A stretch of 64,000 nucleotides of DNA from a bacterium (GCA_030648055.1 JAUSHI010000009.1:112769-176768); one strand, 5' to 3'; positions 3,699 through 61,214 are shown, counted from the first letter of the stretch. The notes: generated by a model not told the origin, from the sequence alone. A program made the numbers and translations.

Positions 3699-3790
3699 TA
3701 TCGCCCACCTCCTATTCTCTTTTCAAAGAAACGGTTTTACTGTATATTACCTATAGCGCATAAAAAAAGTTTTTGCAAGAGCAACATGAA

Positions 3791-3906
3791 TCCCGCACGA
3801 AATCGCGGACGCGTGTATACTATATATGAATTTTGTTAGAAAAAGTTTTATTAATAATAATTTGGAGCGCGGGATATTCTGCGTCCGCGTCCTATTTCGT
3901 ACGGGA
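3791..3906 (+). repeat. Palindromic MITE-like element, family C copy 1
   Basis: Terminal inverted repeats TCCCGCACGAAAT..ATTTCGTACGGGA, flanked by TGAA on both sides. The last A of the element plus flanking TG forms the ATG at 3906. Confidence 0.7.
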
Positions 3907-4982
3907 TGAAAGATTTTTCGTTTCCTATTTTTAAAACCAAAATTCCGGGGGTCTCCGGACGTTTTATGCTTGAAGACCCGGTAGAGCGCCGGAAATACTT
4001 TGACGCCAAAGCCGGGCCAGAGATTGAAAAGTTGCGCGGGTATTTAGAAAAAAACACCTTTTTAGGATTTATGCTTGGCCCGAAAAACTCCGGCAAGGGC
4101 ACGTATGTAAAACTTTTTATGGAGGCCGTGGGAGGAGACCGGGTGGCCCATCTCTCGGTCGGAGATATTGTACGAAATGTTCACAAAGAGTTAGTGGATG
4201 AAAAGAAAAAGAAAGAGTTAGTTGGGTTTTTGCAAAAACGATATCGGGGCTTTATTACCATTGATAAAGCCTTAAACATTATCTTGGGGCGCGACACCAA
4301 GACTCTGCTTCCCACCGAAATTATTTTAGCGCTGGCAGAGCGGGAAATAGACCGCATCGGTAAAAAAGCGATTTTTATTGACGGGTTTCCAAGGAACTTG
4401 GATCAAGTTTCTTACTCGCTTTATTTCAGGGCGCTTATCGGCTATAGGGACGACCCCGATTTTTTTGTGTTTATAGATGTTCCCGAGGCGGTAATTGATG
4501 AGCGCATGAAAACTCGCGTGGTCTGCCCGCAGTGTCAAAGCCCCAGGAATATCAAACTTCTTCGTACCAAAGAGGTTGGTTATGATTCCGCGACAAAACA
4601 ATTTTATCTCATTTGTGATAATCCGAATTGCCCCGGGTATGGGAAGGACCGCATGATTTCCAAAGAAGGGGATGAGCTCGGCATAGAGGCGGTTCGCGAC
4701 CGTATTGAAGTTGACAGAAAAGTGGCGCGTACACTTATTGACCTTAAGGGCGTGCCTCAAATATTTTTGCGAAATTCTATTCCCATTGCCGAGGCCAAAG
4801 AATATGTTGATGATTATGAGATTACACCGGCGTATCTATATGAGCTGGAGGAGGGCAAGGTTAATGTTATTGAGGAGCCGTGGACAGTAACGGATGATGA
4901 AGGCAATCTTTCGTATAGTTTGCTTCCGGTGCCGGTTGCGCTTGCTTTAATAAAAGAAACCGTTCGTGCGCTTAATCTTTAG
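3906..4982 (+). CDS. adk: Adenylate kinase-like NMP kinase, unusually long (358 aa)
   Basis: P-loop GPKNSGKGT, GDIVR, IDGFPRNLDQ, and a Cys4 LID (CPQC..CDNPNC). Has ~55-aa N-terminal and ~90-aa C-terminal extensions. Not in the usual secY-adk-map position. Confidence 0.6.
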   Translation: MKDFSFPIFKTKIPGVSGRFMLEDPVERRKYFDAKAGPEIEKLRGYLEKNTFLGFMLGPKNSGKGTYVKLFMEAVGGDRVAHLSVGDIVRNVHKELVDEKKKKELVGFLQKRYRGFITIDKALNIILGRDTKTLLPTEIILALAEREIDRIGKKAIFIDGFPRNLDQVSYSLYFRALIGYRDDPDFFVFIDVPEAVIDERMKTRVVCPQCQSPRNIKLLRTKEVGYDSATKQFYLICDNPNCPGYGKDRMISKEGDELGIEAVRDRIEVDRKVARTLIDLKGVPQIFLRNSIPIAEAKEYVDDYEITPAYLYELEEGKVNVIEEPWTVTDDEGNLSYSLLPVPVALALIKETVRALNL

Positions 4983-8010: not shown

Positions 8011-8047
8011 TTTATCCAAATAAAACCCATCGGCTGTATTTGGATAT
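8011..8047 (+). repeat. Family H hairpin repeat, copy H1
   Basis: tttATCCAAATAaaacccatcggctgTATTTGGATat. A 37-nt copy with 2 mismatches occurs at 41474..41510. Confidence 0.6.
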
Positions 8048-16522: not shown

Positions 16523-16936
16523 ATGCCTTTCCCATTCAAAAATTTTATCCCGTTAGAGATAGGAAACGCCCAAGGCGTTTCCGTAGCTATGATGCTGGCA
16601 GTATATCGCCGGTGTTTTCTCTACTCTGGGCAGGATGATAAAAAAATAAGGTTTGGATCTCTAACGGGATCCATAAAAAAAGGGGAAAAATACATTATGG
16701 TTGAAAACGGCAAGCCCGAATACGTGGTCATGCATTATGATGATTATGCCGAACTTATTGAAAGAAAAAATGTTGAGAATATGAATATGGTCGGGGATAG
16801 TTCTTTTGGCTTTCCTTCTGAAATAAAAAACGTGGCAATTCGCAACGAGGACACCTTTGTCCCAAAGGCCGCGTTTTTTGGCTCTAATTTGCCGCAGGAT
16901 ATTTCTAAAATTCGTCTTGAAGATTTGCCGTTATAA
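16523..16936 (+). CDS. Hypothetical protein with a Phd/YefM-antitoxin-like segment
   Basis: KKGEKYIMVENGKPEYVVMHYDDYAELIE resembles the Phd/YefM core. The start codon is uncertain. Confidence 0.4.
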   Translation: MPFPFKNFIPLEIGNAQGVSVAMMLAVYRRCFLYSGQDDKKIRFGSLTGSIKKGEKYIMVENGKPEYVVMHYDDYAELIERKNVENMNMVGDSSFGFPSEIKNVAIRNEDTFVPKAAFFGSNLPQDISKIRLEDLPL

Positions 16937-22236: not shown

Positions 22237-22436
22237 AGGGCTTTGTCTGCGAGGTGGGCGTACATACGCGAAGCCGAGCAGGAACAAAACCTTTACCCAG
22301 CCCTTTATGCGGTAAAACCAATCTAAAATTAAAATGGAAAAAGCGGCAACATTCAAATTAAAATCAAATCCAGACAGCTTAAAGGGCTGGGTGCTGAATT
22401 TTATATTTACTCATTACATTCGTAAGTAAAATTCGC
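22237..22436 (+). repeat. Family A structured element, copy A1 (L23|L2 junction)
   Basis: Conserved blocks TAAAGGGCTTTGTC, ACAAAACCTTTACCCAGCCCTTTATGC, GCTTAAAGGGCTGGGTGCTGAATTTTATA, TAAAATTCGC-ATG. Contains a 31-codon mini-ORF at 22334..22429. Confidence 0.85.
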
Positions 22437-23255
22437 ATGAAGAAATATAACCCAACAACGCCGTCGCGGAGAAGTATGGAAAAAATAGATTTTCGCTTTT
22501 CTTCAGATGGGCCTTATAAAAAACTTACCTGCGGCCGTAAAAGGGATGTTGGCAGGAATAATCAGGGGCGCATTACGACCAGGCATAAGGGTGGCGGAGT
22601 CAAGCGGCTTTGGCGCGAGATTGATTTTTTGTATAACAAGAAAAATATTATGGCAACGGTTGAAACCGTAGAGTACGACCCGAATCGCACAAGTTTTATT
22701 GCGCGAGTTCTTTATAAAGACGGTGAGCGCCGATATGTTCTTGCTCCTGCCGGCTTTAAAGAAGGAAGCACTTTTGTTGTTTCTGAAAAAGCTCCGTTGG
22801 AGGCAGGCAACCGTTTGCCGCTTAAAAATATTCCCGTTGGAACACCTGTTTTTAATATTGAATTAAATTTAGGTAATGGAGCCGTGCTCGTTCGTTCAGC
22901 CGGCACTTCCGCGCAGATTCTTGCCGAGGAGGGTGGATATACCCAGCTTAAAATGCCTTCGGGCGAGATAAGGAAAGTGCATTCATCCAATTGGGCGACC
23001 ATTGGAAACGCATCCAACCCTGAAAGGAGTCTTATGGTTTTCGGAAACGCCGGAAGGATGAGGCGCTTGGGCGTCCGTCCGACTGTCCGAGGTTCTGTCA
23101 TGAACCCGAGAGATCATCCGTACGGCGGAGGCGAAGGTAAGCAGGTTAGGGGCACAAAGCGCCCGAAGACCATGTGGGGTAAAATCGGCAGAGGTGTTAA
23201 GACGCGAAGAAATAAGAAAACCAACGTATTTATTCTTAAGAGGAGAAGTAAATAA
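22437..23255 (+). CDS. rplB: 50S ribosomal protein L2
   Basis: 272 aa. GRNNQGRITTRHKGGG..MNPRDHPYGGGEG motifs. Confidence 0.97.
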   Translation: MKKYNPTTPSRRSMEKIDFRFSSDGPYKKLTCGRKRDVGRNNQGRITTRHKGGGVKRLWREIDFLYNKKNIMATVETVEYDPNRTSFIARVLYKDGERRYVLAPAGFKEGSTFVVSEKAPLEAGNRLPLKNIPVGTPVFNIELNLGNGAVLVRSAGTSAQILAEEGGYTQLKMPSGEIRKVHSSNWATIGNASNPERSLMVFGNAGRMRRLGVRPTVRGSVMNPRDHPYGGGEGKQVRGTKRPKTMWGKIGRGVKTRRNKKTNVFILKRRSK

Positions 23256-26123: not shown

Positions 26124-26325
26124 AGGGCTTTGTCCGCTGTTTGGAGCCGCAAGCGAACAAACAGCGGTTACAAAACCTTTACCCAGCCCTCTATGCTGTT
26201 TGATTACGAGACGCAATAATTTATGAAGAAAAAACTTGTAAAAAGTAATAAACGAAATTCGGGCGGCTTAGAGGGCTGGGTGCTGAATTTTATAGTTATT
26301 CGCTTTGCTCATAAATAAAATTCGC
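26124..26325 (+). repeat. Family A structured element, copy A2 (L14|L24 junction)
   Basis: Same block order as A1. 10-bp hairpin CCGCTGTTTG/CAAACAGCGG. ACCCAGCCCTCTA pairs with TAGAGGGCTGGGT. Mini-ORF at 26223..26318. Confidence 0.85.
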
Positions 26326-26631
26326 ATGAAGATTAAAAAAGGTGATACAGTCAGAATATTATCGGGTAAAGATCGTGGTAAAAACGGCAAGGTTATTCGT
26401 GTTTTGCCGGACGAGACGCGCATTTTGGTTGAGGGAATTAATTTGAAAAAAAAGCATGTGCGTTCCAAACGGCAGGATAAAAAAGGTGAAGTTGTCTTAA
26501 TTCCCGCTTTTTTAAACGTTTCGCGATCTATGTTAGTATGCCCGAATTGCCAAAAGCCAACGCGGGTTGCCAGTAAAGTAATAGGCGATAAAAAATATCG
26601 CATGTGCAAACATTGCGATAAGGAATTTTAA
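26326..26631 (+). CDS. rplX: 50S ribosomal protein L24 with a C-terminal Cys4 zinc-ribbon
   Basis: MKIKKGDTVRILSGKDRGKNGKV KOW motif. C-terminal CPNC..CKHC. ATG 26326 is M8 of the track ORF. Confidence 0.93.
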   Translation: MKIKKGDTVRILSGKDRGKNGKVIRVLPDETRILVEGINLKKKHVRSKRQDKKGEVVLIPAFLNVSRSMLVCPNCQKPTRVASKVIGDKKYRMCKHCDKEF

Positions 26632-28703: not shown

Positions 28704-28907
28704 AGGGCTTTGTCCAAAATTTAGAGTAGTCGTCAAATAGACTTTGGAAACAAAACCTTTACCCCGCCCTCTATGCTACAGTTTATAAGTAATAGATAGT
28801 TTATGTATACGGAACTTGCAAAGCACAATAAGGCAAAGCGGAATCGCTTAGAGGGCGGGGTGCTCAATTTTATAGTTATTTATTTCATTCATAAATAAAA
28901 TTCGCAT
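28704..28907 (+). repeat. Family A structured element, copy A3 (L18|S5 junction)
   Basis: Same blocks. ACCCCGCCCTCTA pairs with TAGAGGGCGGGGT, a compensatory change relative to A2. Mini-ORF at 28803..28898. Confidence 0.85.
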
Positions 28908-29396
28908 ATGCCAAGATTTGGTGGTTCAAAATTTAAGAGAGGGGGAGAGCGCGAGAAGTCGGAATATGACCAGAAAGTGCTGGATATCCGCAGGGTAGCG
29001 CGCGTGGTTGCCGGAGGGCGCCGTTTTAGCTTTAGGGCGACGGTTGTTATAGGGAATCGCAGAGGAAAAGTCGGCGTGGGTGTCGCCAAGGGCGTTGATG
29101 TAGCACAGGCCGTTGAGAAAGCCACTCATAAGGCAAGAAAATACATGGTTGTTGTTCCGTTAACTAAATGGGGTTCTATTCCCCACAGAGTGTTGGCTAA
29201 GTTTTCAAGCGCGAGGGTTCTTTTAAAGCCCGCGCCGGAGGGTTCCGGTATTATTGCCGGAGGCTCTGTTCGCGCCGTGGCTGATCTTGCTGGCATAAGG
29301 AATCTTTCTTCAAAAATTCTGTCCCGTTCGCCGAATAAATTAAATAATGCCCGCGCCGCGCTTGCCGCCTTGGCGAGTCTTAAGGCGCGAGAATAA
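28908..29396 (+). CDS. rpsE: 30S ribosomal protein S5
   Basis: 162 aa. RVARVVAGGRRFSFRATVVIGN..GSGIIAGG pattern. Confidence 0.96.
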   Translation: MPRFGGSKFKRGGEREKSEYDQKVLDIRRVARVVAGGRRFSFRATVVIGNRRGKVGVGVAKGVDVAQAVEKATHKARKYMVVVPLTKWGSIPHRVLAKFSSARVLLKPAPEGSGIIAGGSVRAVADLAGIRNLSSKILSRSPNKLNNARAALAALASLKARE

Positions 29397-35989: not shown

Positions 35990-36496
35990 TTGTTCTTTGT
36001 TTCTATAAGCCGAATCCTGTCCTCTGCCTTACGGCAAAGGGGTGATTATCTGTCTAGGCCCGGAATTGCTTCGCGGGCTCAAGCGGGTATTCCCTATAAA
36101 AAATACTTGGGATCCCCTTGCACCAGGTAGGAGTTTTTCTTATCCCGCCAGTCGCCTGCCGGAACTGTGGGCTCTTACCCCACTCTTTTCACCTTTGACC
36201 TCCTTCGCATTGAAAACCTTTAGAGTTTTCGTAACGACGATCGGTAGTATTGTCTCTGTGACACTGTCCCGTTCTCCCTCCCCAATTTTGCACCCGAGTT
36301 ATTCAGTCGAATCAATCGCGATAAGCAAAATCATTCTTTACTGTCTATTTATCTCTGATGCAAAACTGGAGAGGGATATGGTGGCTGTTAGCCACTACCA
36401 CTTTTTTCCAGCTTAACGCTGGAAGGTGTTCGGACTTTCCTCACCAAGCACATAAAAAGTTATGTGCTTGGCGCAATCACCCGAAACAAAGAACAA
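35990..36496 (-). ncRNA. rnpB: RNase P RNA (bacterial type), unusually long at ~507 nt
   Basis: Minus strand carries GAGGAAAGTCCGAAC (CR-I/P4) and GACAGGATTCGGCTTATAG (CR-V/P4). P1 is TTGTTCTTTGTTTC/GAAACAAAGAACAA. Its own TTGCTT-17-TATACT promoter lies just upstream. Confidence 0.85.
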
Positions 36497-41473: not shown

Positions 41474-41510
41474 TTTATCCAAATAAAACCTATCGGCCGT
41501 ATTTGGATAT
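41474..41510 (+). repeat. Family H hairpin repeat, copy H2
   Basis: tttATCCAAATAaaacctatcggccgTATTTGGATat matches H1 (8011..8047) at 35 of 37 positions. Confidence 0.6.
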
Positions 41511-51182: not shown

Positions 51183-52109
51183 ATGGCACTAAATACGGTA
51201 AAAATCTGCGGGCATGGCCGGCAGATTAAATACTTAGAAAAATTGAAAAAGCGTGGCTTGCCTATTTCGGCGTTTCTGTTTTCGGGGAAGGATGGGGTTG
51301 GTAAAAAAACCGTCGCCTTAAATTTTATTGCCGGCCTTTTTTGTGAAGAAGGAGTATTGCCCGGAGTTTTGGCCTGCGGAGAGTGTGAAAATTGCCAAAG
51401 ATTGATCAGTGGCGCGCACCCTGATTTTTCAATATTGTCCGGGGAAGAGGAAATCGGTATTGATGAGGTAAGAGAGCTCAAGCGCCGGCTTTCGTTCTCT
51501 TCTTATTCGGGTTCGTGGAGAGGCGTGCTTGTTGATGACGCGCACCGCATGAATGAGCAGGCACAGGGGGCGCTTCTTAAAATGGTGGAGGAGCCGATAG
51601 GCAAAACACTTTTTTTCTTCGTTACATCAATGCCATATCTCCTTTTAGAAACGGTGCGCTCCAGACTTTTGGAACTTTCTTTTGGAGCCGTTTCGGACGG
51701 AGAGCTAAAGAGCTGGGCAGAAAATAATTTTGTTAAATCAAAAGGCTTAGGAGAGGTTTTTGCTGTTGCTAACGGGCGGCCGGGTAAGGTTAAGCTTTTT
51801 TTGGAAAACCCCGAAGCGTTTAAAGAGGAAAAGGTGAGGGTTTCAAAATTTGAGCCGGTTTTAAAAACTTCGCTTGCTGATCAGTTTTTATTTTCCGAAA
51901 AGCTTTTGCGCGAGGACGACAGTGAGGTCAGGAACTTTTTACAGTTTTTAATAGGTAAGGCGCGTGACCGTGTTTTGAGCGGCGGGGGCGGACCGGACGC
52001 GCGTGAAGAAGTCGGCCAGATGCTTAACCATTATTTTCAACTGGAAAACACAAATATAAACCGGCGTCTCATTATTGATTCGGCATTACTTTCGTTTAGA
52101 AATTTATGA
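51183..52109 (+). CDS. holB: DNA polymerase III delta-prime subunit
   Basis: 308 aa. FSGKDGVGKKT P-loop-like, CGECENC zinc module, VDDAHRMN. Confidence 0.85.
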   Translation: MALNTVKICGHGRQIKYLEKLKKRGLPISAFLFSGKDGVGKKTVALNFIAGLFCEEGVLPGVLACGECENCQRLISGAHPDFSILSGEEEIGIDEVRELKRRLSFSSYSGSWRGVLVDDAHRMNEQAQGALLKMVEEPIGKTLFFFVTSMPYLLLETVRSRLLELSFGAVSDGELKSWAENNFVKSKGLGEVFAVANGRPGKVKLFLENPEAFKEEKVRVSKFEPVLKTSLADQFLFSEKLLREDDSEVRNFLQFLIGKARDRVLSGGGGPDAREEVGQMLNHYFQLENTNINRRLIIDSALLSFRNL

Positions 52110-52110
52110 G

Positions 52111-52252
52111 TCCCGTACGAAATCCCTGCCTGCCGGCAGGCAGGCAGGGCGGACGCGCATATATCATATATATGAATTTTGTTCTGGGAAAATTTAGAAG
52201 TAATAATTTGGGATGCGAGATTTTCTGCGTCTGCGTCCTGTTTCGTACGGGA
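52111..52252 (+). repeat. Palindromic MITE-like element, family C copy 2
   Basis: TCCCGTACGAAAT..GTTTCGTACGGGA ends with flanks TGAG|TGAA. Carries a nested (CCTG)2/(CAGG)3 near-palindrome at 52124..52149. Its last A plus TG forms ATG 52252. Confidence 0.7.
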
Positions 52253-53343
52253 TGAAAACAATTTTAATAGCCGGTGCTGTAATGTTCGGCATTATTGTCT
52301 TAGCGATTGTTGTCCTGCCGTTTATTTTCGGCGTAACTTTTAGTGCGCCTTCCACCGCAGGGAAAGCGGATACTCAGGGCGTATTTCTTTCCGAAGACGG
52401 AGGGGCGACATGGCAGGCAAGAAATAACATAAAAGATTCTAAGCTGAAGCTTTCGGGCCTAAACATAACCGATTTTGCGATAGATTCTAAAAATAGCGGC
52501 TGGCTTTTTATGGCAACAAGTAACTCCGGCATTTGGAAAAGTGATGATGGGGGCCAGAATTGGGAGAAGGTTGTTGATAAGGCCGGCACCCTTGACCCCA
52601 AAGCTCAAGTTTTGCGGCTTGTTATTTCTAAGAAAAATTCCAATTTGTGGTTTACCGCCGTATATCAAAAAAACCGCGGCGCGGTATTAAAGAGCGAAGA
52701 CGGCGGCGAGACATTTAAAGAAGTGTATTTTGTTCCGGTGGAGCGTTTTGGAGTGTTTAACCTTGCGTATGACGATGCGGCCGGTATCGTGACCATCGTT
52801 AACGGGCAGGGTGGGCTTTTGGAGTCGCGCGACTTAGGGAAGTCTTGGAGGGTGGTTAAATGGTTTACGGACGGGCTGACCGGAATTGTCGCCGATCCCG
52901 TAGCATCTTCCATTTATTATATTTTGACCGCTAAAGGTAAAATTTTTAAGACTGCGGATCGCGGGGCGAGTTTCACGGACCTAAGTTCTAATTTTAGTTC
53001 TTTTGACAAAAGCTGGAAAAATCAAAATCTAACCATTGACCCTTTGAGCGGCACTCTTTACCTTGGCTCGGATTACGGTATTATACGCTCAAAAAACGGG
53101 GGTTTTTCATGGGAGAGCGTTCCGGTAATAATTCCACCCGAGGCTCTGCCGGTTTTAAGTATTGCTGTTAATTCCAACGATTCACGCGCATTTTTCGTAA
53201 CGGCGCAGTCGCAGATTTATAGGACGGCGGATGGCGGCGTAAATTGGTCAATTGTTCCCTCACCCATATCGGGGCGGCGGATTACCAAGTTCGTTATTGA
53301 TAAAAACGACGCCAACCGTATATATCTTATTGGCAATAAGTAA
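52252..53343 (+). CDS. Membrane-anchored BNR/Asp-box beta-propeller protein (Ycf48/sialidase-like fold)
   Basis: Start MKTILIAG (M14 of the track ORF) with a TM helix. Seven SxDxGxxW-like repeats (SEDGGATW, SDDGGQNW, SEDGGETF, SRDLGKSW, TADRGASF, SKNGGFSW, TADGGVNW). Confidence 0.75.
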   Translation: MKTILIAGAVMFGIIVLAIVVLPFIFGVTFSAPSTAGKADTQGVFLSEDGGATWQARNNIKDSKLKLSGLNITDFAIDSKNSGWLFMATSNSGIWKSDDGGQNWEKVVDKAGTLDPKAQVLRLVISKKNSNLWFTAVYQKNRGAVLKSEDGGETFKEVYFVPVERFGVFNLAYDDAAGIVTIVNGQGGLLESRDLGKSWRVVKWFTDGLTGIVADPVASSIYYILTAKGKIFKTADRGASFTDLSSNFSSFDKSWKNQNLTIDPLSGTLYLGSDYGIIRSKNGGFSWESVPVIIPPEALPVLSIAVNSNDSRAFFVTAQSQIYRTADGGVNWSIVPSPISGRRITKFVIDKNDANRIYLIGNK

Positions 53344-61093: not shown

Positions 61094-61214
61094 TCCCGTT
61101 AGAAGCCGTGGTCGCAGTATCGGAAATACATATTTAGTAATAGATGAAAAAGAAAATTTTAGAGTATCAACATAATAACTGGCAGGCGCTGACCGCGACC
61201 TGCTTCTAACGGGA
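61094..61214 (+). repeat. Palindromic MITE-like element, family C copy 3
   Basis: TCCCGTTAGAAGC..GCTTCTAACGGGA ends, flanked by TGAA|TGAA. Its last A plus TG forms ATG 61214. Confidence 0.65.

Follow-up and report, generated by a model that had tools for sequence, protein, structure and literature searches.

The 64,000-nucleotide stretch analysed here (GCA_030648055.1 JAUSHI010000009.1:112769-176768; one strand, hereafter the window) belongs to an uncultured bacterium of the Candidate Phyla Radiation (CPR, or Patescibacteria), a group of ultra-small bacteria, and carries a hairpin-forming element, which we call copy C2, exactly between two genes on the plus strand. Upstream lies holB, which encodes the delta' subunit of DNA polymerase III (51183-52109, plus strand). 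The assignment follows from the open reading frame (ORF) and from a match to Pfam PF13177 DNA_pol3_delta2, and the C-terminal motif TN(V/I)N.RL..D is common to the window and its relatives. The 3' end of holB reads ...TTA TGA, with the stop at 52107-52109. Downstream lies the gene of a beta-propeller of the BNR/Sortilin-Vps10 type (hereafter BNR; 52252-53343, plus strand; 363 amino acids) with the N-terminal membrane anchor MKTILIAG.... The exact match of its protein at NCBI is "MAG: hypothetical protein Q7R91_02775 [bacterium]" (MAG, metagenome-assembled genome), and its nearest named relatives belong to Candidatus Niyogibacteria and Sungbacteria. The gene order holB-BNR-frr is conserved in relatives.

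C2 occupies 52111-52252 on the plus strand, 142 nt in all, and matches the profile of a CPR family with the ends YCCCG(TTA/TAC)GA (nhmmer E=5.6e-20). Its left terminal repeat, TCCCGTACGAAAT, begins with T 52111, and its right arm is GCGTCTGCGTCCTGTTTCGTACGGGA, with the 3' end ...TTTCGTACGGGA at 52252. The terminal 12 nt of C2, TCCCGTACGAAA, are exactly repeated in inverted orientation at the other end. This motif occurs four times in the window (at both ends of two copies), compared to 0.37 occurrences expected by chance. Folding of the RNA from 52095 to 52275 gave a single long hairpin of -72 kcal/mol (z = -6.7) with the closing pair 52111/52252, and a second copy in the window, C1, folds into the same shape (-44.4 kcal/mol, z = -3.1). 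The terminal repeats are abutted by the two copies of a 4-bp target-site duplication, TGAG on the left (52107-52110) and TGAA on the right (52253-52256), both on the plus strand, which match in three of the four bases and differ by one mismatch. The left copy is part of the original start context ATGAG (52106-52110, plus strand), whose ATG at 52106-52108 was the BNR start before the insertion. The final base of C2, A 52252, is at the same time the A of the rebuilt BNR start codon (ATG 52252-52254, followed by AAAACA), and the family-wide data place it outside the duplication.

An earlier reading of this DNA, made from the sequence alone (hereafter the sequence-only reading), had claimed that the element splits an ATGA overlap of the two genes and leaves both ORFs intact. 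All coordinates on which it relied were confirmed (the holB stop, the element start at 52111, the ATG at 52252, an upstream ATG at 52213 and a palindrome at 52124-52149). The boundary of the duplicate was refined to the 4 nt directly flanking the terminal repeats, without A 52252. When C2 and one duplicate were removed in silico we obtained TTATGAAAACA, which is the ATGA overlap that had been predicted for removal of the element and one tetranucleotide. Both ORFs are indeed intact: holB keeps its TGA and the ATG of BNR is rebuilt.

We then compared the window with the holB-BNR junctions recovered from many relatives; the identities given in the following are those of the BNR protein compared to the window. 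Empty junctions with a 4-nt ATGA overlap were observed in four lineages, namely L084 (73%), L124 (71%), L125 (64%) and L083/L101 (44%), and in each of them the holB frame stops on the TGA of that overlap. The empty sites read TCATGAAGAC for L084, where the junction is ...AAAAACTCATGAAGACT, GTATGAAAAC for L124 and CTATGAAAAC for L125. Because the empty orthologous sites show a plain ATGA overlap, the ancestral junction is, judged from these alignable sequences, such an overlap that was split by the element. The opposite picture, relatives with a long spacer and no ATGA overlap, is not what was found. We consider it highly likely that a transposon has been inserted in the ATGA stop/start overlap.

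Other relatives are occupied at the identical nucleotide. L004 (Niyogibacteria, 73%) carries a 116-nt family copy with the flanks ATGAA/TGAA, L002 and L128 (about 50%) carry family members with TTAG-type arms and L093 (58%) carries a 294-nt relative of the family. In L090 a 97-nt relative lies a few bases upstream of the junction, and the junctions of L126 and L129 hold a second kind of module, a hairpin/leader repeat. The holB-BNR spacer of L003 (9766-10000, 235 nt) consists of a different inverted-repeat element (CCACAGTACTAAATTTCGC ... GCGAAATTAGTACGGGG), which is bracketed by ATGA ... ATGA and whose ends faintly resemble the CCCGTAC core of the family.

The presence of clearly different family members at one point argues that the holB-BNR start codon has been hit repeatedly. 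The same pattern could have arisen without repeated independent insertions, from one ancient insertion in the ancestor of the window and the clade of L004, L003 and L084, followed by precise later loss in L084, L124 and L125 through recombination of the two ATGAA repeats on either side of the hairpin. Direct repeats around a hairpin promote precise deletion, and the window and L004 share the subfamily at the same nucleotide, both of which count for this explanation. However, the BNR protein tree has the topology (window, (L004, L003, L084)), with L004, L003 and L084 being 80-86% identical to each other and only 48-73% identical to the window, so that occupied, empty and differently occupied sites stand side by side in one clade. 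Several exact losses would have to be assumed, since L004 falls together with L084, which is empty, and L003, which is occupied differently. Furthermore, distinct members are found at the same point in other lineages (294 nt in L093, TTAG-type in L002 and L128), and C2, C1 and L004 are about equally distant from each other (87-89%). On balance we consider a single ancient insertion unlikely.

The start of BNR also had to be weighed, as gene callers choose an alternative in-frame ATG inside C2 (52213-52215, plus strand), which yields a product of 376 amino acids. If BNR did start at 52213, the right arm of C2 would encode a 13-residue N-terminal extension, MRDFLRLRPVSYG. Besides the frame and the choice of the gene callers, this is favoured by one homologue, P0013 (in L002), whose called start is a GTG that gives it a similar extension encoded by an element. 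Against it, 16 of 17 aligned BNR homologues start with MK... at the position that corresponds to 52252, and the N-terminal extension of the sole exception, P0013, is itself a translated related element. At the equivalent position C1 lacks a start codon, and at 52213 a GGG stands directly against the ATG without a spaced ribosome-binding site. The agreement of the homologues supports a start at 52252, as the sequence-only reading had it, and ATG 52213 is probably not the native start of BNR; an element-encoded extension of the protein appears very improbable to us.

For the family search we used the right-arm pattern without flanking bases on one genome per species (GTDB). The pattern was detected in 77 genome stretches, mostly from Patescibacteria, and the host groups comprise Kaiser-, Giovannoni-, Wolfe-, Nomura-, Campbell-, Harrison-, Lloyd- and Liptonbacteria, 'Paceibacterota' and MAGs labelled Saccharibacteria. 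About a dozen matches in other phyla came without a left arm and look like chance. All family statistics rest on the 68 copies with both arms, including C1 and C2 of the window and L004. Copy length is mostly 114-126 nt with modes of 120 and 117 nt; the 142-nt C2 is also in the set, and there are three hairpin-only forms of 50 nt (L021, L057, L075). The ends are near-invariant, YCCCGTTAGA...TCTAACGGGR (YCCCGTTAGAAAT...ATTTCTAACGGGR), with the consensus (T/C)CCCGTTAGAAAT ... ATTTCTAACGGG(A/G), and in most of the copies the outermost 12 nt of the two ends are complementary without a mismatch. For the subfamily of the window, CGTACG replaces GTTAG/CTAAC in the arms and the ends read YCCCGTACGA. 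The inner arm is CGCGGACGC / GCGTCCGCG with a conserved extra 4-nt bulge, TCCT, on the right side only, and the interior between the arms (~70 nt) is variable and AT-rich.

Identical flanking 4-mers on the left and the right were observed in 46 of the 68 copies. The right 4-mer is not TGAA in 29 copies, and for 17 of these the left side shows the identical variant (TGGA, TGAG, TGCG, TTCA, TAAA). Such co-variation next to invariant arms is the pattern expected of a real target duplication from a staggered cut. The base preceding the left duplicate is an A in 57 copies. At the right junction a start codon is completed in 63 copies (ATG in 53 and GTG in 10), and an ORF of at least 60 amino acids begins at the rebuilt codon in 55. 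Nearly all GTG junctions belong to copies with CCCCG...CGGGG ends, and because the GTG tracks these ends the first base of the start codon is the element's own. No reverse-oriented copy at a gene start was found in the copy set. The genes behind the copies are diverse, with differing downstream ORF lengths and flanking sequences, and the copies sit between conserved housekeeping genes and not in arrays. Two 117-nt copies that are identical at 117 of 117 positions occur at two loci of one MAG (JBBDVD01) and indicate recent movement.

We consider it very likely that the family is associated with start codons. The element belongs to the MITEs (miniature inverted-repeat transposable elements) by the properties that we tested, that is, terminal inverted repeats, a target duplication, a small size without transposase, dispersed copies and empty sites. 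The family is apparently undescribed and spread across many CPR lineages; our literature search found no paper describing it or describing MITEs in CPR. What the sequence-only reading had treated as a local 'Family C' is therefore a real element, but its local character did not hold up, as it is a member of this mostly CPR-borne, start-codon-associated family.

A conserved structured leader or regulatory RNA that is not mobile DNA would also be found directly 5' of start codons and with a single orientation, as the copies are, and the fold is very stable. Such an RNA is hard to reconcile with the presence and absence at orthologous sites, with the co-varying flanking duplicates, with the location upstream of many different genes or with identical copies at two loci of one genome. 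In addition, Rfam 15 gave no relevant match at gathering score in the window, two chance-level matches at E<=10 around the element and no match at E<=10 in L004 and L002. We regard a leader RNA as extremely improbable.

Relatives of other sizes were also encountered. The search for paired ends described below returned separate small elements together with longer (226-294 nt) and shorter (48-97 nt) relatives. The longer ones (~275-294 nt, with TCCCGTTAGAGAT ends) were located in L033 (5099-5374 and 5782-6056), L045 (958-1232) and L093 (1718-2012), and shorter hairpin-only ones of 48-80 nt in L021, L057 and L075 (50 nt) and in L047, L059 and L036 (70-80 nt). The first 10-11 terminal bases are common to long and short relatives, and (A)TGAA flanks many of them, which points to a putative superfamily with a single rule for end recognition and target. 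In L019 (3575-3810) two members stand head to tail, and the left end of the second follows immediately on the first one's right duplicate, ATGAA.

A reading frame also spans the interval between the two genes. A 49-codon through-ORF (52106-52255, plus strand), which we call the relay ORF for its putative function, starts with an ATG that overlaps the holB stop and ends with a TGA (52253-52255) that overlaps the BNR ATG. For 31 of the 68 copies we observed an ORF from the left ATG through the element to a TAA that lies within the right end (CTAACGGG) and 4 nt ahead of the rebuilt start. The length is divisible by 3 in 39 of the 65 full-length copies, so that such lengths are over-represented, and it clusters at 114, 117 and 120 nt. 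Among these 39 copies frame 0 is open in 32, compared to 6.9 in shuffled interiors, and the other frames are open in 2 and 4. When the interiors were clustered at 75% identity the through-ORF was present in 19 of 48 clusters, where about three would be expected by chance according to a rough estimate. Clustering was carried out at 70-80% identity, as 60% lumped all copies. The open frame was also found in the identical and presumably young pair L011/L017. Internal ATGs lie in frame 0 in 36 of 75 cases. In many copies the alignment further shows (C/T)ATGA inside the element, ~20-35 nt beyond the left arm; in the copies with a through-ORF its ATG is in frame 0, and the motif may be an internal start or a -10-like box or have no role.

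The peptides encoded by the through-ORFs comprise 37-49 codons and their interiors are not conserved between clusters. A profile search with these peptides against 5.8 billion proteins gave only 7 weak or short matches and no annotated protein family. Given the non-conserved interiors and the few matches we rejected the possibility that the through-ORF is a small-protein gene. As open frames are enriched and the peptides are unconserved, selection seems to act on keeping the frame open and not on the peptide.

In order to characterize the targets we studied the 40 nt upstream of the left ATG for the 50 copies with a left ATG. An upstream ORF on the same strand has its stop within -30 to +1 nt in 26 of these contexts, 10 of which are ATGA overlaps. 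At least ten more show an extended -10 box (TGnTAnnnT) that ends 6-9 nt before the ATG, and a Shine-Dalgarno-like motif is present in only two of the 50. The distance of the -10 box from the ATG suggests leaderless transcripts, and that such transcripts are common in these CPR lineages. From the scarcity of Shine-Dalgarno motifs, together with the overlaps and -10 boxes, we infer that what matters for the target genes is where the ATG lies with respect to a terminating ribosome or to the transcript's 5' end.

Our explanation of the junction, which taken as a whole we consider likely, combines these observations as follows. C2 is a non-autonomous, hairpin-forming MITE that inserted into the 4-nt ATGA of holB and BNR. 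As the sequence comparison shows, the insertion duplicated TGA(A/G), with the left copy retaining the holB stop, and the last base of the element, an A, together with the TG of the right copy rebuilt the ATG of BNR, leaving both genes intact. Ribosomes would start at the original left ATG, or restart there after the holB stop, read through the element and end either 4 nt before the rebuilt start (TAA) or on it (ATGA, in the case of C2). Re-initiation at the rebuilt start would then allow the element to relay the coupling rather than to break it, and holB and BNR could be linked by two successive ATGA junctions. We put such a relay mechanism for translational coupling at a little under an even chance. 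The statement of the sequence-only reading that the insertion uncoupled the two genes is nevertheless doubtful, given the 49-codon ORF at 52106-52255 and the enrichment of through-ORFs across the family. More tentatively, these elements may be 'translationally transparent' hairpin transposons of the CPR, which target TGRR after an A at the starts of coupled or leaderless genes without a Shine-Dalgarno sequence and carry a relay ORF. Where this ORF has decayed the ribosome might be handed across the foot of the hairpin, and repeated independent hits at holB-BNR would imply that the start site is recognized and not just that harmless insertions survive.

Several points weigh against this explanation. 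The CGTACG subfamily, to which C2 belongs, has no TAA in the arm, and six of its seven members contain internal stops, including L004 at the same site; the open 49-codon ORF of C2 could therefore be due to chance. About half of all copies have no through-ORF and yet precede intact genes, which implies that the relay is not the only route to translation. Strict single orientation and the preference for TGRR after an A are not explained by symmetric cut-and-paste alone. Finally, a transposase-bearing partner was sought as matching ends 30-5000 nt apart in the window and in about 130 fetched 8-kb loci, and no pair of ends that encloses a gene at a spacing of 0.3-5 kb was found.

The first two of these points would be expected if the genes are truly uncoupled, the 49-codon ORF is accidental and BNR is initiated independently, be it from a promoter inside the element, after an RNase III cut of the stem or by a shunt from the holB TGA across the base of the hairpin. 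The two feet of one stem in the fold carry the left TGA and the right AUG, which would suit a shunt, and C1 shows a promoter-like TTGTTA-17-AATAAT facing the gene. A promoter scan of C2 detected no site on the plus strand, however, and the family-wide peak of the -10-like TANNNT is weak (24 of 66 copies). The same three results, a consensus-like site in C1, none on the plus strand of C2 and 24 of 66 in the family, apply to an internal outward promoter as the cause of the fixed orientation. The strong enrichment across the family of copies with frame 0 open and with a length that is a multiple of 3 also counts against independent initiation. We see true uncoupling as a serious possibility that nonetheless has the odds somewhat against it.

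The strict orientation relative to an asymmetric target could instead indicate a single-strand, orientation-specific mover whose transposase would be an HUH/tyrosine enzyme of IS200/IS605 or RAYT type, in place of DDE cut-and-paste. The 'duplication' would then consist of the target motif and a matching cleavage motif that belongs to the element. The long hairpins resemble REPINs, with a variable middle between conserved ends, hairpin-only forms of 50 nt exist (L021, L057, L075) and the asymmetric TCCT bulge sets the right arm apart from the left. On the other hand, six flanking 4-mers vary in concert on the two sides of elements whose arms do not change, which fits a staggered cut; the terminal inverted repeats are perfect, and a GTAG or CGTC tag (PMC3733652) is absent. 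A single-strand mover appears quite unlikely.

C2 contains a nested GC-rich palindrome, CCTGCCTGCCGGCAGGCAGGCAGG, at 52125-52148 (plus strand; within 52124-52149), the only one in the window. Deletion of these 24 nt restores the consensus GAAATC followed by GCGGACGC exactly (GAAATCGCGGACGC) and the through-ORF stays open; the palindrome is in frame and adds eight codons to the ORF at 52106-52255. Its core of 20-24 nt, CCTGCCTGCCGGCAGGCAGG, was found at four other CPR loci (L015 6815-6845, L046 2628-2650, L047 498-520 and L036 1440-1470). The one in L015 seems to be part of a coding region, in which it forms an insert of eight in-frame codons reading ...SLPAGRQG..., the one in L046 is intergenic and the one in L047 lies within a 70-nt short family member. 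The palindrome is thus a later, in-frame insertion of a separate small palindromic module, and it may be a tiny mobile element in its own right. The sequence-only reading had left the choice between secondary insertion and repeat-unit slippage. The clean 24-nt block and the recurrence of its core elsewhere support the insertion, and slippage as the origin of the (CCTG)2/(CAGG)3 asymmetry was rejected because the block is discrete and the core recurs in unrelated CPR loci. A Logan contig (L001, SRR13727527) contains an identical 142-nt element and gives no length variation.

We also compared the family to known systems. Correia elements (CREE) are ~100-150 bp long with ends of ~25-26 bp, form a long hairpin on co-transcription and may have promoter-like sequences that face outward; they duplicate TA and are confined to Neisseria. 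Like these and other bacterial MITEs, the CPR family is short and dispersed, has terminal inverted repeats and a short duplication and lies next to genes. In contrast to Correia elements it duplicates TGRR after an A, sits on start codons, provides the first base of the codon and occurs in one orientation. It often contains a through-ORF and is spread across CPR lineages. Membership was rejected, as the duplication is TGRR and not TA. The Rickettsia palindromic elements (RPEs) are likewise small palindromic mobile elements that survive in compact genomes through compatibility with translation, as ribosomes read through them. They lie in frame within ORFs and end up in the protein sequence, whereas the CPR family occupies the start codon itself; the summed length of element and duplication is not divisible by 3, and the through-ORF is a separate upstream frame that ends 4 nt before or on the start.

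Conserved inverted ends of 20-25 nt, a variable spacer, a hairpin of ~100-120 nt and short hairpin-only forms are shared with REPINs. Repetitive extragenic palindromic (REP) sequences make, to our knowledge, no target duplication. Their palindromes of 20-40 nt end with a GTAG or CGTC tag (PMC3733652). With the ends YCCCGTTAGA / YCCCGTACGA lacking such a tag and a co-varying 4-bp duplication, REP or REPIN membership was rejected; no association with a RAYT was seen in the 8-kb loci and the 64-kb window. The same rejection applies to the palindrome elements of IS200/IS605, which lack terminal inverted repeats and insert 3' of one fixed tetra- or pentanucleotide without duplicating it, because of the perfect terminal repeats and the six duplicated 4-mers with invariant arms. 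Integron attC sites were rejected as well, since GTTAGAA at the 5' and TTCTAAC at the 3' end are the reverse of the order RYYYAAC...GTTRRRY and no arrays are formed.

Coupling by termination and re-initiation is documented for ATGA/TGATG overlaps (PMC6728339). Both the junction before the insertion and the junctions made by the element (TAA-N4-ATG, and ATGA in C2) resemble this arrangement. Unlike in classical ATGA coupling, the upstream partner is a short ORF from a mobile element and not the neighbouring gene. For the copies without a through-ORF there is an analogy, and no more than that, to shunting and bypassing, with the ribosome at one foot of the hairpin and an identical AUGAA context at the other. 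Shunting over a hairpin after a short ORF is known from the 35S leader of cauliflower mosaic virus (CaMV), and bypassing with matching take-off and landing codons from T4 gene 60 and the mitochondrial 'byps'. The gap would be longer here (~120-146 nt) than in known bypasses. What is new in the CPR family is its location at start codons, the donated first base, the single orientation, the through-ORF and the spread over many CPR lineages.

CPR genomes are very small and gene-dense, and almost any insertion is harmful. If our explanation is true, the elements follow a new survival strategy for mobile DNA, in which the upstream stop, the downstream start and possibly the coupling are repaired. 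The family may also serve as a natural probe of translation initiation in CPR. At a practical level the elements cause wrong start calls, as for BNR (376 instead of 363 amino acids) and P0013, as well as spurious operon spacers across thousands of CPR MAGs. Element and 24-nt palindrome are potential markers for the strain-level population genetics of uncultured CPR.

In total we detected four family copies in the 64 kb of the window. C1 (116 nt; 3791-3906, plus strand; nhmmer E=2e-24) has the TGAA duplicates at 3787-3790 and 3907-3910, that is, the flanks ATGAA/TGAA, and the start codon of a 358-amino-acid ORF is rebuilt at 3906. Apart from the 24-nt gap C1 and C2 are 82-87% identical, and for C1 the repeat finder reported a 14-nt arm at 93% and a perfect 9-nt inner arm. 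The other two copies were not listed in the sequence-only reading. A 121-nt copy with TTAG-type arms (61094-61214, plus strand; nhmmer E=3.2e-11) is flanked by ATGAA / TGAA, and an ORF of 184 amino acids begins at the rebuilt ATG 61214. The fourth copy (16548-16669, minus strand; nhmmer E=4.7e-4) is degenerate, with TCCCGTTAGAGAT-type ends and the flanks ATGGA on the left and TAAA on the right, and does not stand at a current gene start.

Further repeats were noted in the window. The second module mentioned above occurs upstream of three genes (22264-22446, 26150-26335 and 28730-28915) and at the holB-BNR junctions of L126 (1385-1510) and L129 (1440-1510; promoter/leader half only). It is composed of a hairpin (ACCCAGCCCTCTATGC ... 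GCTTAGAGGGCTGGGTG) followed by CTGAATTTTATAGTTA..TCGCT..GCTCATAAATAAAATTCGC and ends directly on an ATG start codon. By its layout it looks like a portable promoter/leader unit, and it is probably the other repeat family of the sequence-only reading. A 37-nt palindromic repeat, TTTATCCAAATAAAACC.ATCGGC.GTATTTGGATAT, is located at 8011-8047 and 41474-41510; the two copies are intergenic and show 95% identity. The match to the RNase P RNA (bacterial class A) at 35990-36492 on the minus strand spans 503 nt compared to a model of 367 positions, and the gene seems to carry ~130 nt extra in the form of insertions or expansions.

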